Source of the DNA: Escherichia coli
GTDB lineage: Bacteria > Pseudomonadota > Gammaproteobacteria > Enterobacterales > Enterobacteriaceae
DNA length: 64,000 bases
NCBI RefSeq assembly: GCF_024700885.2
Contig: NZ_CP117016.1
Reading direction: 5' to 3' (one strand)
Below, one piece after another: positions 50,797 through 60,115 of this stretch. The notes below the pieces were generated by a model, which had not been told where the DNA came from, did not search any database, and saw only the letters and a list, made by a program, of their open reading frames with translations. The position numbers and the translations under genes were made by a program. Within the stretch, counting starts at the first letter, position 1. Every line of letters begins with the position of its first letter.

Positions 50797-52179
50797 GTGG
50801 CAAAAGCTCCAAAACGCGCCTTTGTTTGTAATGAATGCGGGGCCGATTATCCGCGCTGGCAGGGGCAGTGCAGTGCCTGTCATGCCTGGAACACCATCAC
50901 CGAGGTGCGTCTTGCTGCGTCGCCAACGGTGGCGCGTAACGAGCGTCTCAGTGGCTATGCCGGTAGCGCCGGGGTGGCAAAAGTCCAGAAACTCTCCGAT
51001 ATCAGCCTTGAAGAGCTGCCGCGTTTTTCCACCGGATTTAAAGAGTTCGACCGCGTACTAGGCGGCGGCGTGGTGCCGGGAAGCGCCATTCTGATTGGCG
51101 GTAACCCAGGTGCGGGGAAATCCACGCTGCTACTGCAAACGCTGTGCAAACTGGCCCAGCAGATGAAAACGCTGTATGTCACTGGCGAAGAGTCGCTGCA
51201 ACAGGTGGCAATGCGCGCTCATCGCCTTGGCCTGCCGACTGACAATCTCAATATGTTGTCGGAAACCAGCATCGAACAGATCTGCCTGATTGCCGAAGAA
51301 GAGCAACCGAAACTGATGGTAATTGACTCGATCCAGGTGATGCATATGGCGGATGTACAATCATCGCCTGGTAGCGTGGCGCAGGTGCGTGAAACGGCGG
51401 CTTATCTGACGCGCTTCGCCAAAACGCGCGGCGTGGCGATTGTCATGGTCGGGCACGTAACCAAAGATGGCTCGCTGGCTGGCCCTAAAGTGCTGGAACA
51501 CTGTATTGACTGTTCGGTGCTTCTGGACGGCGATGCCGACTCCCGTTTCCGCACCTTGCGTAGCCATAAAAACCGCTTCGGCGCGGTGAATGAACTGGGC
51601 GTCTTCGCGATGACCGAACAGGGTCTGCGTGAAGTCAGCAACCCTTCGGCAATCTTTTTAAGCCGCGGTGATGAAGTGACCTCCGGTAGCTCAGTGATGG
51701 TAGTGTGGGAAGGAACGCGTCCGCTGCTGGTGGAGATCCAGGCGCTGGTCGATCACTCGATGATGGCGAATCCACGCCGCGTGGCGGTAGGGCTGGAGCA
51801 AAACCGTCTGGCGATCCTGCTGGCTGTCTTGCACCGTCACGGTGGTCTGCAAATGGCCGATCAGGATGTATTTGTGAACGTGGTCGGCGGCGTGAAGGTA
51901 ACCGAAACCAGCGCCGACTTGGCGTTACTGCTGGCGATGGTTTCCAGCCTGCGTGACAGACCGCTGCCGCAGGATCTGGTGGTGTTTGGTGAAGTCGGGC
52001 TGGCAGGGGAGATCCGCCCGGTGCCCAGCGGTCAGGAACGTATCTCAGAAGCGGCGAAACACGGTTTTCGCCGGGCGATTGTTCCGGCGGCTAACGTACC
52101 GAAAAAAGCGCCGGAAGGGATGCAGATTTTTGGCGTTAAAAAACTCTCCGACGCGCTTAGCGTGTTCGACGACTTATAA
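50797..52179 (+). CDS. radA: DNA repair protein RadA
   Basis: 460 aa from GTG start; zinc finger CNECGADYPRWQGQCSAC, Walker A GNPGAGKST. Confidence 0.9.
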   Translation: MAKAPKRAFVCNECGADYPRWQGQCSACHAWNTITEVRLAASPTVARNERLSGYAGSAGVAKVQKLSDISLEELPRFSTGFKEFDRVLGGGVVPGSAILIGGNPGAGKSTLLLQTLCKLAQQMKTLYVTGEESLQQVAMRAHRLGLPTDNLNMLSETSIEQICLIAEEEQPKLMVIDSIQVMHMADVQSSPGSVAQVRETAAYLTRFAKTRGVAIVMVGHVTKDGSLAGPKVLEHCIDCSVLLDGDADSRFRTLRSHKNRFGAVNELGVFAMTEQGLREVSNPSAIFLSRGDEVTSGSSVMVVWEGTRPLLVEIQALVDHSMMANPRRVAVGLEQNRLAILLAVLHRHGGLQMADQDVFVNVVGGVKVTETSADLALLLAMVSSLRDRPLPQDLVVFGEVGLAGEIRPVPSGQERISEAAKHGFRRAIVPAANVPKKAPEGMQIFGVKKLSDALSVFDDL

Positions 52180-52199
52180 TGAGAGATACGGAGGGAGAT

Positions 52200-53432
52200 A
52201 TGTCGTCATTTGATTACCTGAAAACTGCCATCAAGCAACAAGGCTGCACGCTACAGCAGGTAGCTGATGCCAGCGGTATGACCAAAGGGTATTTAAGCCA
52301 GTTACTGAATGCCAAAATTAAAAGCCCCAGCGCGCAAAAGCTGGAGGCGTTGCACCGTTTTTTGGGGCTTGAGTTTCCCCGGCAGAAGAAAACCATTGGT
52401 GTCGTATTCGGTAAGTTCTACCCGCTGCATACCGGACATATCTACCTTATCCAGCGCGCCTGTAGCCAGGTTGACGAGCTGCATATCATTATGGGCTTTG
52501 ACGATACCCGTGACCGTGCGTTGTTTGAAGACAGCGCCATGTCGCAGCAGCCCACGGTGCCGGATCGTCTGCGCTGGTTATTGCAAACCTTTAAATATCA
52601 GAAAAATATCCGTATTCATGCCTTCAACGAAGAGGGCATGGAGCCGTATCCGCACGGCTGGGATGTGTGGAGCAACGGCATCAAAAAGTTTATGGCTGAA
52701 AAGGGGATCCAGCCGGACCTGATCTACACCTCGGAAGAAGCCGATGCGCCACAGTATATGGAACATCTGGGGATCGAGACGGTGCTGGTCGATCCGAAAC
52801 GCACCTTTATGAGTATCAGCGGTGCGCAGATCCGCGAAAACCCGTTCCGCTACTGGGAATATATTCCCACCGAAGTGAAGCCGTTCTTTGTGCGTACCGT
52901 GGCGATCCTTGGCGGCGAGTCGAGCGGTAAATCAACCCTGGTAAACAAACTTGCTAATATCTTCAACACTACCAGTGCATGGGAATATGGTCGCGATTAT
53001 GTCTTTTCACACCTTGGCGGTGATGAGATCGCATTGCAGTATTCCGACTACGATAAAATCGCGCTGGGACACGCTCAATACATTGATTTTGCAGTGAAAT
53101 ATGCCAATAAAGTGGCGTTTATCGACACTGATTTTGTCACTACCCAGGCGTTCTGCAAAAAGTACGAAGGGCGGGAGCATCCGTTCGTGCAGGCGCTGAT
53201 TGATGAATACCGTTTTGATCTGGTGATCCTGCTGGAGAACAACACCCCGTGGGTGGCGGATGGTTTACGCAGCCTCGGCAGTTCGGTGGATCGCAAAGAG
53301 TTCCAGAACTTGCTGGTGGAGATGCTGGAAGAGAACAATATCGAATTTGTGCGGGTTGAAGAGGACGATTACGACAGCCGTTTCCTGCGCTGTGTGGAGC
53401 TGGTGCGGGAGATGATGGGCGAGCAGAGATAA
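52200..53432 (+). CDS. nadR: NadR trifunctional regulator/NMN adenylyltransferase/ribosylnicotinamide kinase
   Basis: 410 aa; N-terminal HTH, HxGH-type motif (YPLHTGH), Walker A GGESSGKST. Confidence 0.9.
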   Translation: MSSFDYLKTAIKQQGCTLQQVADASGMTKGYLSQLLNAKIKSPSAQKLEALHRFLGLEFPRQKKTIGVVFGKFYPLHTGHIYLIQRACSQVDELHIIMGFDDTRDRALFEDSAMSQQPTVPDRLRWLLQTFKYQKNIRIHAFNEEGMEPYPHGWDVWSNGIKKFMAEKGIQPDLIYTSEEADAPQYMEHLGIETVLVDPKRTFMSISGAQIRENPFRYWEYIPTEVKPFFVRTVAILGGESSGKSTLVNKLANIFNTTSAWEYGRDYVFSHLGGDEIALQYSDYDKIALGHAQYIDFAVKYANKVAFIDTDFVTTQAFCKKYEGREHPFVQALIDEYRFDLVILLENNTPWVADGLRSLGSSVDRKEFQNLLVEMLEENNIEFVRVEEDDYDSRFLRCVELVREMMGEQR

Positions 53433-53465
53433 CCGTGACGAAACGGCTCAAAGGCGAGGTATAAA

Positions 53466-53669
53466 ATGAGTTTTTTTGATAAGTTGAAAACCTCTCTGGA
53501 AGAGGCTGTTGAGATTAAACAAGGTTTAAAAGAACCTGCACGGGTGACCCGCTACGAAATTGCGGATGCTAAGGCTATTCGTGAGCAACTTCATACTCCA
53601 ACTGACCGGTTGCGTAGCCAGAATGCAATCAAATCTGACAGTCCGCTTCGAGCGAAAATCGGAAGTTAG
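53466..53669 (+). CDS. Hypothetical small protein
   Basis: 67-aa ORF convergent with GNAT gene; no motif recognised. Confidence 0.25.
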   Translation: MSFFDKLKTSLEEAVEIKQGLKEPARVTRYEIADAKAIREQLHTPTDRLRSQNAIKSDSPLRAKIGS

Positions 53670-53672
53670 TAG

Positions 53673-54221
53673 CTAGTTACCCAATAACTGCTCCCACTCT
53701 TTCTTGAGTAGAGCGAAAATAAATGTATCATCATATTTTTCTACACCATTATCATGTGTGAACGAGACAAACTCTTTAAAACATCCCTCCTGTCGCATAT
53801 GGAGACGAGCACATAGTTTCTGAGAGGCAAAATTATAGTCTTCAACATATGCATAAAGACGTCTGGCTTCTTTTTCAAAAAACAAATATTGAAATAACGC
53901 AGTGACAGATTCTGTAGCATAGCCTTTACCTTCATACCTCTTGTTAAAATGCCAGCCAACTGACCAGGTATTTCTGTCAGACTCCCCCTTATTATCAGCA
54001 AAGAGATGACCAATTAATTCATCAGTCTCTTTAAGGCAAACGGCAAACTGGCTGTTATCAAGGATTCTGCTGTCTATTTCTTTTATCGCATCTTCCAGGG
54101 AGTTGAGTTTTTCGTCCTGAAAACAAGGTGTGCGAGGTGAAGACAGATAATCGAAAAGTGCAGATGCATCTTTATTTTTGAATGCGCGAATAATGAGTCG
54201 CTCTGTAGTCATGAAGATCAT
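53673..54221 (-). CDS. GNAT family N-acetyltransferase (RimJ/RimL-like)
   Basis: 182 aa; ERLIIR N-terminal motif and acetyl-CoA-binding-like region (KRYEGKGYATESVTAL). Confidence 0.7.
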   Translation of the reverse strand: MIFMTTERLIIRAFKNKDASALFDYLSSPRTPCFQDEKLNSLEDAIKEIDSRILDNSQFAVCLKETDELIGHLFADNKGESDRNTWSVGWHFNKRYEGKGYATESVTALFQYLFFEKEARRLYAYVEDYNFASQKLCARLHMRQEGCFKEFVSFTHDNGVEKYDDTFIFALLKKEWEQLLGN

Positions 54222-54299
54222 GGAAACCTTATGTTATCTGGAGAACTTTTTGTGCATTCTACTAAATAATGATGCTTAGTCATATTAAGCTCATTCTGA

Positions 54300-54590
54300 T
54301 GTGATCAATGTCTACTTTTGGCACTATACGGACGACCAAACCCAATCAGATCCGACCAGCCGTTAGCCAGTGCCAGTTCGGCGCGCGCTTTGGTGTATTT
54401 TCCGGAGTAAATCAGCGTGCCGTGGAAAATTATGCGCAGCGCTTCTGCTGATTTGCGTACCTTCGCAGATGATAAGTCCAGCACTGGCGCGCTGCGCGTA
54501 ATAGGCCGCCATTATGTCAGTCGCAACGTCACCCGCGCGGGAACGCGTCGTCGGTGGCATTACAATACGGTTTATTAATGGCAACGCATT
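54300..54590 (-). pseudogene. Relic of Old-Yellow-Enzyme-family NADH:flavin oxidoreductase (NemA-like), internally deleted
   Basis: ORF 54363-54584 encodes DIMAAYYAQRASAGLIICEGTQIS (OYE N-terminal signature); another frame at 54301-54362 encodes GWSDLIGFGRPYSA (OYE C-terminal signature); the rest of the ~365-aa enzyme is absent. Confidence 0.45.
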
Positions 54591-54632
54591 CAGCGCATAT
54601 TTAGCAAATTACGTAATGGGTCCCTCGCGCGA

Positions 54633-54845
54633 TTATTTATACAGTTCGGCACTCATGGTGACGGTATTGCCCATGCGAGCGCTGGTAATTTTGTATTCAG
54701 AGGCGTTCATCTCTTTCGCTTTCTGCGCAATAACCGCTTCAGCGGAATCCAGTGTTGTACCGGTTGCTGTCACGCTTTGCGCCGATGCGTTAAACGCCGC
54801 GACAGAGAAAAGAGAAGCCGTAAAAATTGCGATGATCGTTTTCAT
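54633..54845 (-). CDS. DUF1471-family small periplasmic protein (YdgH/BhsA/McbA-like)
   Basis: 70 aa with signal peptide, C-terminal SEYKITSA...ELYK pattern. Confidence 0.6.
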   Translation of the reverse strand: MKTIIAIFTASLFSVAAFNASAQSVTATGTTLDSAEAVIAQKAKEMNASEYKITSARMGNTVTMSAELYK

Positions 54846-55002
54846 GTTTATATTCCAGAGTGTCTTAATTGTTTGGCGTTTATTAACGCGATGGGGAGAG
54901 AATACGCCTGCTGCCTGATAACATAAATGATACAAATGACAATAGACTATTCTGATTTTGTTAATAATCAGACGCCGGACGTTCCGACGCCTGTCGATTG
55001 CA

Positions 55003-55419
55003 TCAGGCAACAAAGTTGTCCTTCAGCGCCTTGAGACCATCCCGATAGATGCCGGTAAACAGCGCTTCGGCCTCTTCGTTCGTCACATTCACCGGGGTGA
55101 ATTCACCGAACCATTCCACACGGGAAACCTGGCTGTCGGCGGTTTCATGAACGGTAATGGTGGAGAGGTAATCCACCACCGGGAACGGTGCCTGAATAAT
55201 GGAATAGGTATAACTGCGTTGACGGTTATCAAACGCTTCCAGACGTTCAACCACAGTGCCGCCGTCAGAGGTTGTCAGCGAACGAACGCGACCGCCTTCT
55301 GTCACTACGCTTTTCGGGATGAACGGCAGCCAGTCTGGCAGCGCATCAAAGCCGCCCATCAATTGCCATACGGCGTCGGTAGAAGCCGGAATTTCGATCG
55401 ATACAGTTGTTTTAGCCAT
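55003..55419 (-). CDS. SRPBCC-family protein (polyketide cyclase/dehydrase-like fold)
   Basis: 138 aa, MAKTTVSIEIPASTDAVWQLM pattern. Confidence 0.55.
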   Translation of the reverse strand: MAKTTVSIEIPASTDAVWQLMGGFDALPDWLPFIPKSVVTEGGRVRSLTTSDGGTVVERLEAFDNRQRSYTYSIIQAPFPVVDYLSTITVHETADSQVSRVEWFGEFTPVNVTNEEAEALFTGIYRDGLKALKDNFVA

Positions 55420-55444
55420 GATAATTTTCTCTTAATTTATAGGG

Positions 55445-56242
55445 TTACATAGTCAGGGTGTCGACGACACCGCCATCGACGCGCAGGGCTGCCCCTGTGG
55501 TTGCCGAGGAAAGCGGTGACGCGAGATAAACCGCCAGATTCGCTACTTCTTCCACATCCGCCGCACGCTGGATGATGGAGCTCGGACGCGAGGTTTTAAC
55601 AAACTCATCGGCCTGTTCACGCGCACTGCGTCCCGATTGTGCAGCGGCATCCGCCAGCATCTCTTTCAGGCCATCGGTAAAGGTTGGCCCTGGCAGAATG
55701 GCGTTGACGGTCACACCGGTCCCCGCCAGTCGTTTCGCCAGACCATGAGAAACCGCCAGATTCGCGGCTTTGGTGACGCCGTAGTTGATCATGTCGCCAG
55801 GGATTGCCACGCCGGATTCGGACGAGACAAAAATAATCCGCCCCCAGCCCTGTTCCGTCATGCCTGGCGCATAGTGACGCGCCAGACGAACGCCGGAGAG
55901 GACGTTGACGTTATAGAAGTGCATCCACTCATCATCCGGAACGCTAAAGAAATCTTTATCGTTAAAAATGCCCAGATTATTGACCAGCACATCAGCCGTT
56001 GGGACTGCAGCGATCAGCGCAGCCACGCCGTCTTCGGTGCTGAGATCCGCCACCACGCCGCGCAGTGACGCTGTGGGGGTTTGTGCCGCAATCGCAGCCA
56101 TGGCGTCATCAACGCCGCTCTGTTTACGGCCGACGACAACCACCGTTGCGCCTGCTTTTGCCAGTCCGGCGGCGATACCCTGCCCAATGCCGGAGGTTGA
56201 GCCGCTGACCACCGCGACTTTACCTGTCAGATCCAGTTTCAT
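55445..56242 (-). CDS. Short-chain dehydrogenase/reductase (SDR)
   Basis: TGKVAVVSGSTSGIGQGIA NAD(P)-binding motif; start chosen at MKLDLTGK. Confidence 0.8.
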   Translation of the reverse strand: MKLDLTGKVAVVSGSTSGIGQGIAAGLAKAGATVVVVGRKQSGVDDAMAAIAAQTPTASLRGVVADLSTEDGVAALIAAVPTADVLVNNLGIFNDKDFFSVPDDEWMHFYNVNVLSGVRLARHYAPGMTEQGWGRIIFVSSESGVAIPGDMINYGVTKAANLAVSHGLAKRLAGTGVTVNAILPGPTFTDGLKEMLADAAAQSGRSAREQADEFVKTSRPSSIIQRAADVEEVANLAVYLASPLSSATTGAALRVDGGVVDTLTM

Positions 56243-56261
56243 CGTTTTCTCACCAGGTTGA

Positions 56262-57272
56262 TTAACGGGTCGGCAGCGGAGCGTTTTCCGCAACCAGATT
56301 TTGACGGCGCATTTCTGCCCAGAATTCAGCCGGAACAGGCGCATTCAGTGCAGCCAGATCTTCTGCCATACGGCCAGGACGGCTGGAGCCAGGAATAACC
56401 GCTGCAACGGCCGGGTTTGCCAGCGCGAACTGCAGCGCAGCCGCTTTAACGTTCACATTGAAACGTGTGGCAATGGCGTTAATTTGCGCCACTTTCTGCT
56501 GGATGGCCGCAGAAGCTTTCTGATATTCAAAGTGCTCGCCGCCTGCCAGTACGCCAGAGCTGTACGGACCGCCCACAACAATATCCACGTTCTGTTCCAG
56601 TGCTTCTGGCATCAGGCGTTGCAGCGCACGTTCGTGATCCAGCAGGGAATAACGCCCCGCCAGCAGGAACGCATCTGGCTTCGGTTCGTCCAGCGCCAGC
56701 GTCAGTTCACAAGGTTCGACGCGGTTCACACCCAGTCCCCAGGCTTTAATCACACCTTCGTCACGCAAACGTGTCAGTGCACGAAACGCACCGGTACGGG
56801 CTATGTTGAACTGTTCCAGCCAGCTGTCACCGTAGAAGTCCTGTGCCGGGTCGTGGATCCAGACAATATCCAGACGGTCTGTTTTCAGGCGTTTCAGGCT
56901 GTCTTCAATCGAGCGCAGCGTGGCGTCAGCAGAGTAGTCATTCAGAATTTTGTTTTTCAGGCCGTATTCGAACAGGCCACCTTTTTCACCGAAATCACGT
57001 TTTGCCGGATCTTCCATTTCGTCCAGCATGATGCGACCGACTTTGCTGCTCAGAACGTATTCATCACGTGGATACTGAGACAGCGCTTCGCCTATGCGGA
57101 TTTCAGAAAGGCCAGAGCCGTACAGCGGCGCGGTATCAAAGTAACGCACGCCCAGGTTCCAGGCTTCGCTCACGGTGGCGTGGGCCTCGTCTTCCAGAAT
57201 GGCACGGAACATGTTGCCGAGTGGTGCGCCGCCTAAGCCAATTTTGCCGGGAAGTAAATTTTTGATGCTCAT
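56262..57272 (-). CDS. Aldo-keto reductase family oxidoreductase
   Basis: 336 aa, IGLGGAPLGNMF AKR N-terminal signature. Confidence 0.75.
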   Translation of the reverse strand: MSIKNLLPGKIGLGGAPLGNMFRAILEDEAHATVSEAWNLGVRYFDTAPLYGSGLSEIRIGEALSQYPRDEYVLSSKVGRIMLDEMEDPAKRDFGEKGGLFEYGLKNKILNDYSADATLRSIEDSLKRLKTDRLDIVWIHDPAQDFYGDSWLEQFNIARTGAFRALTRLRDEGVIKAWGLGVNRVEPCELTLALDEPKPDAFLLAGRYSLLDHERALQRLMPEALEQNVDIVVGGPYSSGVLAGGEHFEYQKASAAIQQKVAQINAIATRFNVNVKAAALQFALANPAVAAVIPGSSRPGRMAEDLAALNAPVPAEFWAEMRRQNLVAENAPLPTR

Positions 57273-57405
57273 AAGATGTCCTCAATTATTCGGTTTGGGT
57301 TAGGGCATTTTTTTGCTATCGCCCTGTGACGTGGATCACAATACCTTGCGAGGTTGTGACTTGATAGGACATAATTCGTCTGACTTAAGTCCTTTGAGGT
57401 CTAAC

Positions 57406-58293
57406 ATGATTGATTTACGCCAACTGAAGTACTTCGTGGTGGTCGCAGAAGAAGAGCACGTGGGACGCGCAGCCGAGCGATTACATATCTCGCAATCACC
57501 GCTGAGCCGCCAGATTGCACAACTGGAAGAACGGCTGGGGCTGACGCTGTTTGAGCGTAATCAGCAGCGCATTCGCCTGACCGCTGATGGACAGACATTC
57601 CTTGCCGAAACACGTTCGTTGCTGACACACGCCAACCGCCTGGAGTCGTTAGGCAAACGCCTGGGACGGGGGGAAGATGGTGGCTTGTGTATTGGCTATA
57701 TCGAAAACGCCATGCATTCCGGTGTGCTTTCTACGGCGCTACGTACGTTACGTGTATCGCGTCCGAATGTGCATATTGCACTTTACAGCCAACCACCGGC
57801 GACCCAGATTGAAGGCCTGCGCCAGCGCAGTCTCGATTTTTCTCTGGTCGATACGCCGCCCACCGACAGCGAGCAGGATCTGGAATATATTCAGGTTCTG
57901 GATGATCGAATGTTGTTGGCCTTACCGCAAAATCATCCTCTGGCGCAGGAGGAAAACCTTGTCGCGTCACAACTTGGCGATGAGCAGTGGATTGCGGTGA
58001 TTCATAACGACGATGCGCATTCTCGCGATCATTTTGTCGCCGCCTGTGTTAACGCCGGGTTTAATCCTGATATTCGCCTGGAAGCGGGTGAACCCCTCAC
58101 GGCATTAGGTCTGGTCGCTGCGGGATTAGGTCTGGCCTTAATTCAACATAGTCTGCGTCATAATGCGCCGGAAGGGGTGGTATTACGTGAATTGCCGTGG
58201 ATGAATTATTCAACGCAATTATGGGCAGCCTGGCATAAAGCCAACCAACGTCCGCTGGTTTCCCATTTCCGCCAGATTTTGCGCGGTGAATAA
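57406..58293 (+). CDS. LysR-family transcriptional regulator
   Basis: N-terminal HTH LRQLKYFVVVAEEEHVGRAAERLHISQSPLSRQIAQLE; divergent from oxidoreductase genes. Confidence 0.8.
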   Translation: MIDLRQLKYFVVVAEEEHVGRAAERLHISQSPLSRQIAQLEERLGLTLFERNQQRIRLTADGQTFLAETRSLLTHANRLESLGKRLGRGEDGGLCIGYIENAMHSGVLSTALRTLRVSRPNVHIALYSQPPATQIEGLRQRSLDFSLVDTPPTDSEQDLEYIQVLDDRMLLALPQNHPLAQEENLVASQLGDEQWIAVIHNDDAHSRDHFVAACVNAGFNPDIRLEAGEPLTALGLVAAGLGLALIQHSLRHNAPEGVVLRELPWMNYSTQLWAAWHKANQRPLVSHFRQILRGE

Positions 58294-58447
58294 AACGTTA
58301 AGCGGGAACCATGAGTTCCCGCTTGATTTGAGATGTCAGTCCGCATCTGAGCTAATACGCTTAAAGAAAATTCTGCCTTTTCCGGGGACTCATCATTTAA
58401 CTAATACCGGCTGCGATGCTGGCGCGCCGCATCCGGCATTTTACGCA

Positions 58448-60115
58448 TTACTTCGCAATGCGCTTGTACTTGATACGCTTCGGCTCCAGCGCGTCTGCGC
58501 CCAGCGTGCGTTTCTTGTACTCTTCGTACTCGGTAAAGTTACCTTCGAAGAACTCAACTTTACCTTCATCCTGGTAGTCCAGGATGTGCGTGGCGATACG
58601 GTCGAGGAACCAACGGTCGTGCGAGATAACCATCGCGCAGCCCGGGAACTCCAGCAGGGCGTTTTCCAGCGCACGCAGGGTTTCGATATCCAGGTCGTTG
58701 GTTGGTTCGTCGAGCAGCAGCATGTTGCCGCCAACTTGCAGCAGCTTCGCCAGATGCAGACGACCGCGCTCACCGCCGGAGAGTTCACCAACGCGTTTAC
58801 CCTGATCAACCCCTTTAAAGTTAAAGCGGCCAACGTAGGCGCGGCTTGGCATCTCGGTGTTGCCGATTTTCATGATATCCAGCCCGCCGGAAACTTCTTC
58901 CCAAACGGTTTTGCTGTTATCCATTGAGTCACGGAACTGATCAACCGATGCCAGTTTCACCGTTTCACCCAAAGTGATGGTGCCGCTGTCCGGCTGTTCC
59001 TGACCAGAGATCATACGGAACAGCGTCGATTTACCCGCACCGTTCGGACCGATGATCCCGACGATCGCCCCTTTCGGGATCGAGAAACTCAGATCATCAA
59101 TCAGCAGACGATCGCCATAGGATTTACGCAGATTGCTGACTTCCAGCACTTTGTCGCCCAGACGCGGTCCAGGTGGAATAAACAGTTCGTTGGTTTCGTT
59201 ACGTTTCTGATATTCGGTGCTGTTCAGCTCTTCAAAGCGTGCCAGACGTGCTTTACCTTTCGACTGACGGCCTTTAGTTCCCTGACGTACCCACTCCAGC
59301 TCTTTCTCAATCGACTTACGACGCGCCGCTTCTTGTGAAGCTTCCTGCGCCAGGCGCTGATCTTTCTGCTCCAGCCAGGAGGAGTAGTTGCCTTCCCACG
59401 GAATACCTTCACCGCGGTCCAGTTCGAGGATCCAGCCTGCAACGTTATCGAGGAAGTAACGGTCGTGAGTAATCGCTACAACGGTGCCTTCGAAGTCGTG
59501 CAGGAAGCGTTCCAGCCACGCCACGGATTCGGCATCCAGGTGGTTCGTCGGTTCGTCGAGCAGCAGCATGTCTGGTTTTTCCAGCAGCAGGCGGCACAAC
59601 GCCACGCGACGACGCTCACCACCGGAGAGGTTAGCGATTTTCGCGTCCCAGTCCGGCAGACGCAGCGCATCCGCCGCACGCTCCAGCTGAACGTTCAGGT
59701 TGTGACCGTCGTGAGCCTGAATGATCTCTTCCAGACGGCCCTGTTCAGCGGCCAGTTTGTCAAAATCGGCATCCGGATCGGCGTACAGCGCATACACTTC
59801 ATCCAGACGTTTCAGAGCGTTAACCACTTCAGAAACCGCTTCTTCAATGGACTCACGTACGGTGTGTTCCGGGTTGAGCTGAGGTTCCTGCGGCAGATAA
59901 CCAATCTTGATATCCGGTTGCGGACGCGCTTCGCCTTCGATGTCTTTATCAATGCCCGCCATAATGCGCAGCAGGGTGGACTTACCCGCGCCGTTCAGAC
60001 CCAGGACACCAATTTTTGCCCCAGGGAAGAAACTCAGAGAGATGTTTTTCAAAATATGACGTTTCGGCGGAACAACTTTGCCGACACGATGCATGGTATA
60101 AACGAATTGAGCCAC
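58448..60115 (-). CDS. ettA: Energy-dependent translational throttle protein EttA (ABC-F)
   Basis: 555 aa, two ABC domains (GLNGAGKST, GPNGAGKST). Confidence 0.9.
   Translation of the reverse strand: MAQFVYTMHRVGKVVPPKRHILKNISLSFFPGAKIGVLGLNGAGKSTLLRIMAGIDKDIEGEARPQPDIKIGYLPQEPQLNPEHTVRESIEEAVSEVVNALKRLDEVYALYADPDADFDKLAAEQGRLEEIIQAHDGHNLNVQLERAADALRLPDWDAKIANLSGGERRRVALCRLLLEKPDMLLLDEPTNHLDAESVAWLERFLHDFEGTVVAITHDRYFLDNVAGWILELDRGEGIPWEGNYSSWLEQKDQRLAQEASQEAARRKSIEKELEWVRQGTKGRQSKGKARLARFEELNSTEYQKRNETNELFIPPGPRLGDKVLEVSNLRKSYGDRLLIDDLSFSIPKGAIVGIIGPNGAGKSTLFRMISGQEQPDSGTITLGETVKLASVDQFRDSMDNSKTVWEEVSGGLDIMKIGNTEMPSRAYVGRFNFKGVDQGKRVGELSGGERGRLHLAKLLQVGGNMLLLDEPTNDLDIETLRALENALLEFPGCAMVISHDRWFLDRIATHILDYQDEGKVEFFEGNFTEYEEYKKRTLGADALEPKRIKYKRIAK

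Follow-up and report, generated by a model that had tools for sequence, protein, structure and literature searches.

Introduction

In Escherichia coli, the nemRA-gloA and rclABC operons each have a regulator of their own that controls NAD(P)H-dependent reductases, and it is of the TetR type in the first (NemR) and of the AraC type in the second (RclR). Members of the same families, a NemA-like Old Yellow Enzyme (OYE), an RclB/BhsA-family DUF1471 protein and presumed NAD(P)H-dependent reductases, are encoded beside a single LysR-type regulator, their presumed controller, between nadR and ettA in E. coli contig NZ_CP117016.1 (assembly GCF_024700885.2), at positions 53433-58447 of a stretch of 64,000 nucleotides referred to here as the window. 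The likeness is one of family membership and may be taken as suggestive. The differences lie in the regulator and in the core of the cassette, which consists of an aldo-keto reductase (AKR), a short-chain dehydrogenase/reductase (SDR) and an SRPBCC-fold protein. Of the OYE gene, the window keeps no more than a dead relic.

The site and the mode of carriage also have known counterparts. Type II toxin-antitoxin (TA) loci of the RelE/ParE-HTH kind, with HigBA-like gene order, resemble the state of this site in 673 of the 5,426 complete E. coli genomes that form our survey sample, where a PF06296 toxin gene precedes the HTH_3 antitoxin-like gene nadS; in contrast, the window has a toxin remnant and a split nadS. 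Integrase-less islets in E. coli hot spots between core genes share variable presence (8.9% for the islet described here), atypical GC content, alternative alleles and varied cargo. The present islet differs from them in that its insertion point lies inside a decayed antitoxin gene and its cassette occurs at three sites in three Escherichia lineages.

A first-pass annotation, made from the sequence letters, had read the interval as an accessory island of about 5 kb encoding a LysR-controlled oxidoreductase cluster. The analysis reported here makes it likely that this DNA is a horizontally acquired accessory islet, integrase-less and not self-mobile, that sits in a decayed TA locus and carries a LysR-activated module for NAD(P)H-dependent reduction.

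An islet inside a decayed antitoxin gene

The undisturbed form of the site is seen in strain JNE120442, whose nadR-ettA interval holds a gene for a 110-aa RelE-family toxin (PF06296) followed one base later by a gene for the 94-aa helix-turn-helix protein NadS (L003 2697-3315). Full-length NadS matches NF041265 at 182.6 bits. The uninterrupted pair of the 673 genomes is found in CFT073, among others. In the window, base-level alignment shows that foreign DNA of 4,770 bp (53591-58360) has taken the place of nt 126-241 of nadS (116 nt). The small ORF directly downstream of nadR is the 5' part of this split gene, and PGAP labels it 'NadS, missing C-terminus'. The first-pass annotation had asked for the insertion boundaries to be defined: the ~5-kb interval is real, but the foreign part is narrower, and the rest of the interval consists of remnants of the TA locus. 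No TA function can remain at this site, because 29 nt are all that is left of the toxin gene and the break in nadS (nt 125/242) leaves fragments of 125 nt and ~35 nt; an intact type II TA system is absent here.

The two genes were expected to be neighbours in K-12, and there they lie 307 bp apart, with a 55-aa truncated nadS, REP/BIME sequence and no cluster gene between them. The toxin-deletion junction is identical in K-12 and the window. The K-12 nadS frame (L002 3140-3300) enters REP/BIME-type palindromic sequence that replaces its 3' part, a different route to disruption of nadS than that taken by the islet. This K-12 remnant has been reported as expressed (PMC12350097), in the sole paper on nadS found. 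At least three alleles of the gap therefore exist in E. coli, namely the intact RelE/NadS pair, the REP/BIME-truncated nadS and the islet-split nadS, and the alignments show that the islet replaced part of an antitoxin gene already orphaned. Compared with the intact nadS allele, the islet state is the derived one.

The history of the locus may have run as follows. A RelE-family toxin/NadS antitoxin pair would have stood downstream of nadR, and deletion of the toxin gene would have left nadS as an orphan. Foreign DNA would then have replaced the middle of nadS, after which the NemA-like OYE gene would have been destroyed by an internal deletion and the loss of its 3' end.

Distribution in E. 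coli

The whole interval, scored as present at >=80% coverage, is found in 481 of the 5,426 genomes, and the operon core (54633-58324) in 482 (8.9%). It is always chromosomal and in single copy, at 98.3-100% identity. The carriers are diverse strains and include O145:H28, whereas the O157:H7 genomes sampled have the nadS stub only. The first-pass annotation would have been wrong had the same genes stood at this place in K-12 and all E. coli; the interval is accessory, not core, and K-12 and most other strains have a nadS remnant in its place. GC content is ~40% in the segment with the acetyltransferase (GNAT) gene and 55-60% in the cassette, compared with ~50-52% in the adjacent nadR. Base composition and variable presence are those of a genomic island.

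The same distribution could in principle result from loss, if the cluster were ancestral between nadR and ettA and had been deleted in ~90% of strains. Ancestral presence would fit the diversity of the carriers, and long residence in the species would fit the synonymous divergence (dS) of the islet among carriers (0.03-0.09, with DUF1471 up to 0.155), which is of the same order as that of nadR and ettA (0.09-0.18). We nevertheless regard this as very unlikely. The 673 genomes with an uninterrupted toxin-nadS pair keep the 116 bp missing in carriers and cannot derive from the islet state, and the intact allele is found in B2-type strains such as CFT073. Moreover, the cassette stands elsewhere in the genomes of sister Escherichia lineages, parts of the islet lie above and parts below the mean GC content of E. 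coli, and GTDB representatives of other Escherichia species are not among the close AKR matches.

In agreement with the first-pass annotation, which had seen neither an integrase nor repeat boundaries, no integrase or recombinase gene was found among the open reading frames (ORFs) of the interval (Pfam) or in the PGAP annotation of strain 1190. ARAGORN found no tRNA or tmRNA gene in 52000-60500, and no Rfam RNA was detected. A search for flanking direct repeats or att sites, by repeat search and short-word BLAST of both ends, returned only a chance-level 8-mer. This word, CAGTCCGC, lies near both ends of the foreign DNA (53639-53646 and 58337-58344) with loosely similar flanks; its E value of ~0.2 marks it as probably due to chance.

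Mosaic structure and cargo

Comparison among carriers indicates that the islet is a mosaic of a conserved cassette (lysR divergent from AKR-SDR-SRPBCC-DUF1471-OYE relic) and a variable cargo slot. Four slot states share the left junction to ~53667 and resume at ~54315. With the same breakpoints as the GNAT gene of the window, the slot holds a TauE/SafE exporter gene and a winged helix-turn-helix gene in ST2747 and a DUF2846 gene in strain 48. The fourth state, THO-008, is a deletion form in which 53651-54376 have been removed at a TTCG microhomology. It lacks ~60 bp of the OYE relic that are homologous to the intact gene, and is therefore a secondary deletion and not an empty ancestor.

The GNAT cargo was found in 19 genomes, TauE in 21 and DUF2846 in 1, while ~440 carriers (~91%) match none of the three known cargos; in the 25 rows sampled, these carriers stop at the left breakpoint of THO-008. 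The GNAT-bearing form of the window is a rare variant, amounting to ~4% of carriers and 0.35% of genomes. Its protein scores above the Pfam cut-off for PF13302 (74.8 bits, 1.4e-20) and PF00583 (41.4 bits), and its best, weak likeness among NCBIfam equivalogs is to RimJ/RimL (36 bits against a cut-off of 190, not reached).

A perfect 9-11-bp inverted repeat (AAGCGGAAGTT / AACTTCCGCTT) flanks the cargo of both ST2747 and strain 48. Only the left arm is present in the divergent strain E69 (see below), and both arms are degenerate in the window. As a general end of the cassette this repeat was rejected: neither E. whittamii nor Yokenella has it, and the 9-mer is overall no more frequent than expected by chance. 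One assembly with the GNAT form, GCA_900450425.1, has an IS200-type (Y1_Tnp) transposase gene between ettA and lysR (L089 1290-1748). In the same assembly nadR, SDR, SRPBCC and other genes are split, which may reflect either a degrading lineage or a frameshift-rich assembly.

A site that first held a RelE/NadS pair and now has swappable cargo might also be a hot spot for anti-phage defence or TA systems, with the GNAT protein and its neighbours forming one of these. GNAT toxins exist in some TA families. Among the explanations considered this is the least probable: none of the islet proteins is matched by a PADLOC model, the site has lost its toxin gene and has nadS in two pieces, and the GNAT gene has no adjacent partner gene and is weakly RimJ/RimL-like.

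Copies of the cassette elsewhere in Escherichia

A scan with the AKR protein, limited to one genome per species, yielded 80 loci, among them copies of the cassette at other sites in Escherichia. The strain named 'E. coli E69' has core genes only ~92.5% identical to those of E. coli and represents a divergent Escherichia lineage. Its cassette comprises lysR-AKR-SDR-SRPBCC-DUF1471 and an intact gene for a 365-aa NemA-like OYE (396 bits against a cut-off of 403), and lies downstream of yhiN-pitA-uspA, not near nadR/ettA (flanks identified with NCBIfam and BLAST). In E. whittamii the cassette stands downstream of glyQS, adjoining ghrB-yiaD-bisC. No mobility genes were found at any of the three Escherichia sites. 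The three copies cease to be homologous at the hairpin after lysR (58324-58326), and the homology between E69 and E. whittamii has its other limit 5 bp past the OYE stop codon; the moving unit is therefore lysR...OYE.

In the window a complete OYE FMN oxidoreductase domain (~365 aa) is lacking. Two stretches of the window, 54447-54672 and 54318-54446, correspond to the parts of the intact E69 gene on either side of the missing piece. In coordinates of the E69 locus (L005), the internal deletion covers 12833-13518 in E. coli and 12785-13422 in E. whittamii. These different deletions indicate that the OYE was inactivated independently in the E. coli islet and in E. whittamii, and suggest that it has been lost repeatedly while the rest of the cassette was kept. 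The E. whittamii remnant lies at L006 12778-13116, compared with 54318-54620 in the window; the gene is intact in E69 and apparently in Yokenella.

Cassette DNA of the window and E69 is 97.7% identical (dS 0.05-0.09), as close as among E. coli carriers, while the core genomes are ~7.5% apart. The comparison indicates that the cassette was exchanged recently between Escherichia lineages. Present-day E. coli cannot have donated the intact OYE gene of E69. Further, 53 plasmid or chromid records, none from E. coli, carry relatives of the AKR, and 14 of these replicons are predicted to be mobilizable or conjugative. An AKR with 99% identity to that of E. coli is encoded on a 1,397-bp contig of a Collinsella sp. 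metagenome-assembled genome (JAIJJM010000794.1); the contig is most likely a misbinned Escherichia fragment.

Cassette proteins and selection

The gene calls of the first-pass annotation (GNAT, OYE relic, DUF1471, SRPBCC, SDR, AKR and divergent LysR) are all upheld by Pfam. The AKR keeps the catalytic residues D46, Y51, K77 and H140 within DxAxxY, SxKxG and WxHD motifs. In this Asp-Tyr-Lys-His set and in superfamily it resembles YdjG, DkgA/DkgB and YghZ of E. coli and plant L-galactose dehydrogenase; unlike them, it belongs to a separate, large and uncharacterised clade that is ~70% identical across phyla and has more than 7,000 relatives at E<=1e-60. It reaches none of the named AKR equivalogs (YdjG, DkgA, DkgB, KidO), the best being YdjG at 71 bits against a cut-off of 550 (DkgB, 39 against 327). 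The motifs of the SDR are likewise intact (GSTSGIG at 14, as G14xxxGxG; NNLG at 88; S140...Y154GVTK, as YxxxK). The closest solved structures to the SRPBCC protein are PDB 3cnw ('XoxI') and 3f08, at E ~1e-52, both structural-genomics entries without assigned function. The best NCBIfam match of the LysR protein is AlsR (223 bits against a cut-off of 430).

The ratio of non-synonymous to synonymous divergence (dN/dS) is 0.03-0.1 for AKR (~0.04-0.1), SDR, SRPBCC and LysR, and four E. coli strains share one LysR protein accession although their DNA has diverged by 1-2%. These values show purifying selection on the four genes. They bear on the possibility that the islet has no function left, is in decay and is kept solely through hitch-hiking in a recombination hot spot, an explanation that would account for the destruction of OYE in the window and independently in E. 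whittamii, for the ~91% of carriers without the three known cargos, for the THO-008 deletion that also trims the OYE relic, and for the one assembly with frameshifts and an IS200-type insertion. Given that the inspected genomes encode AKR, SDR, SRPBCC and LysR proteins of full length whose motifs are preserved, that their dN/dS is low and that LysR is unchanged despite synonymous divergence, we consider decay highly improbable, more so than ancestral presence followed by loss.

A conserved module and its control region

The core of the cassette recurs far beyond Escherichia, from Enterobacterales to Streptomyces. Within 400 bp of the AKR gene, lysR is divergent in 64 of the 80 species loci, and SRPBCC follows AKR on the same strand in 64/80. 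The SDR gene stands in between in 22, mostly of gamma-proteobacteria, and DUF1471 is present in 9, all Enterobacterales. At the distant loci, which belong to Pseudomonas, Burkholderiales, Streptomyces and Saccharopolyspora, the AKR is on average 72% identical and LysR 65%, and the two identities co-vary across loci (r = 0.96). No conserved extra neighbours accompany the cassette in distant taxa and none offers a functional clue; the flanking genes differ in every taxon, and the module is therefore self-contained.

Alignment of the 64 intergenic regions reveals that ~55 nt by the lysR start codon are conserved across phyla, with the consensus gT.AGACCTc.aaGGACTcAAGT..G.C.aAtTAtGTCtTggacaGTCt. 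G(A/T)C triplets recur with helical spacing at offsets 1, 11, 22, 32 and 42, in 59, 58, 33, 58 and 57 of 60 sequences, respectively. The predicted lysR promoter (57346-57375) has its -10 box, CATAAT (57370-57375), inside the conserved block, as is, by inspection, the lysR Shine-Dalgarno sequence. The arrangement resembles that of LysR-type transcriptional regulators (LTTRs) with a divergent operon, such as BenM/CatM, AlsR and OxyR-type LTTRs, in the HTH_1 and LysR_substrate domains, in the orientation away from a presumed target, and in a putative operator that overlaps the regulator's own promoter and, at ~45-55 bp, would fit a tetramer footprint. It differs from them in having five helically phased G(A/T)C triplets and no single obvious T-N11-A dyad. 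The LysR control proposed in the first-pass annotation thus gains comparative support from the divergent lysR gene, the co-variation of the two proteins and the operator-like block.

LysR may bind this putative operator and repress its own gene; a small-molecule inducer acting on LysR would then activate the AKR-SDR-SRPBCC operon. We put forward, tentatively, that the divergent lysR-AKR(-SDR)-SRPBCC unit may be a self-contained module, not described before, that senses and reduces one specific and widespread small molecule; a carbonyl or quinone made by plants or microbes is a candidate. On this view regulator, operator-like block and enzymes have stayed together from Enterobacterales to Streptomyces, and the unit would relocate among chromosomal sites, of which Escherichia alone has three, and onto plasmids without mobility genes of its own.

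Possible function

On the reading favoured here, the enzymes of the cassette would use NAD(P)H to reduce a compound that is electrophilic or has a carbonyl group, and its hydrophobic substrate or product would probably be bound by the SRPBCC protein. The companion families in Enterobacterales, a NemA-like OYE and a BhsA/RclB/YhcN-like DUF1471 protein, are annotated for electrophile, oxidant or chlorine stress and thus point to such a role.

The main alternative for function is oxidative. The AKR might be an NAD(P)+-dependent aldose or hemiacetal 1-dehydrogenase in a catabolic module, with the SDR performing a second oxidation and LysR induced by a sugar of the L-fucose, L-galactose or D-threo-aldose type. 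Two observations suggest sugar oxidation and weigh both for this alternative and against a reductive module: the nearest solved AKR structures are plant L-galactose dehydrogenases (E 7e-30), and the automatic name of the AKR family is 'D-threo-aldose 1-dehydrogenase' (JGI, NCBI, UniRef). The structural matches are, however, distant and partial and the names automatic. Also, no transporter, lactonase, dehydratase or aldolase accompanies the cassette, its neighbours vary by taxon, and its Enterobacterales companions are the NemA-like OYE and the BhsA/RclB-like stress protein. An aldose-oxidizing module is accordingly judged unlikely, though it is the strongest of the rival explanations.

Further points count against the LysR-activated reduction module in its present form. 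No AKR, SDR, LysR, GNAT or SRPBCC protein of the islet reaches an NCBIfam equivalog cut-off that would assign a substrate. No sigma-70-like promoter was found on the AKR side of the control region, which fits activator dependence and proves nothing. No candidate mechanism was identified for the movement of the cassette. A literature search returned no paper with the six RefSeq protein accessions and none combining SRPBCC, aldo-keto reductase and LysR; none combined nadR, yjjK and hotspot either.

Further features of the interval

Gene order around the interval is serB-radA-nadR (+), the 5,015-bp interval, ettA (-) and slt (+). The interval runs exactly from the end of the nadR stop codon (53430-53432) to the stop of ettA at 58448. 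It is 100% identical to that of E. coli strain 1190, and the PGAP annotation of that strain has the same genes. The last ~34 nt of the left-end segment resemble E69 sequence 562 bp past the OYE homology. The hairpin after lysR would, as a minus-strand terminator, stop read-through from ettA. Long ORFs lie antisense to AKR (56301-57236 (+), 311 aa) and SDR (55637-56068 (+), 143 aa); they are expected in GC-rich coding DNA, and nothing points to genes.

Table 1. Coordinates of the features discussed, in window positions unless a locus is named.
Feature	Position	Strand	Basis or remark
nadR, core gene, left flank	52200..53432	+	PGAP annotation of identical strain 1190; ORF
Last 29 nt of deleted RelE-family toxin gene	53436..53464	+	Aligns to toxin 3' end in JNE120442
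nadS 5' fragment, nt 1-125 of 285-nt gene	53466..53590	+	Base-by-base comparison; mismatch run begins at offset 125
Left-end segment of islet, origin unassigned	53591..53667	.	Common to all cargo variants: strain 1190, ST2747, strain 48; THO-008 up to 53650
Inverted repeat around cargo	53650-53667, 54300-54320; L085 6550-6568, 8060-8075; L086 7486-7500; E69 (L005) ~14209-14242		
Variable cargo slot, here GNAT (Acetyltransf_3) gene, CDS 53673-54221, ~40% GC	53668..54314	-	Pfam, GC content
OYE (NemA-like) relic, internal ~686-bp deletion and lost 3' end	54315..54620	-	PF00724 profile positions 12-68/342; fragment 54363-54584
DUF1471 / YdgH-BhsA-McbA family small secreted protein	54633..54845	-	PF07338; weak NCBIfam matches BhsA, RclB, YhcN
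SRPBCC (Polyketide_cyc2) ligand-binding-fold protein	55003..55419	-	PF10604, 1e-29
Classical SDR oxidoreductase	55445..56242	-	PF13561 (151 bits) / PF00106
AKR, first operon gene	56262..57272	-	PF00248, 3e-44, 151.7 bits, residues 10-322
Divergent lysR/AKR control region	57273..57405	.	Conserved operator-like block 57351-57405; alignment of 64 intergenic regions
LysR-type transcriptional regulator	57406..58293	+	PF00126 85.7 bits and PF03466 133.8 bits
11-bp-stem hairpin after lysR stop	58300..58324	.	Terminator-like site; minus-strand score
Right-end segment of islet, origin unassigned	58325..58360	.	Found in E. coli carriers, absent from E69 and E. whittamii
nadS 3' fragment from nt 242, small internal deletion	58361..58395	+	Local alignment to JNE120442 nadS
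ettA, core gene, right flank	58448..60115	-	PGAP annotation; ORF

Significance

The accessory region itself is real but fairly ordinary. New with respect to the first-pass annotation are the site that splits nadS, the mosaic structure with its rare, swappable GNAT gene, the sites in other Escherichia, with an intact OYE counterpart in E69, and a core that is conserved across phyla, far outside E. coli. Current understanding is not overturned. Accessory regions of this kind are ordinary, although the evolutionary history is cleaner here than in most. A defined strain-variable locus is added to those of E. coli, one allele of which brings a set of regulator and reductases to ~9% of strains, including O145:H28 Shiga-toxin producers. 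The lysR-AKR-SRPBCC cassette, with thousands of homologues, is strongly conserved and uncharacterised. With a conserved putative operator and only one regulator, it lends itself to simple tests, for example reporter assays of the divergent promoter, and the inducer could thereby be revealed for the whole cross-phylum family.

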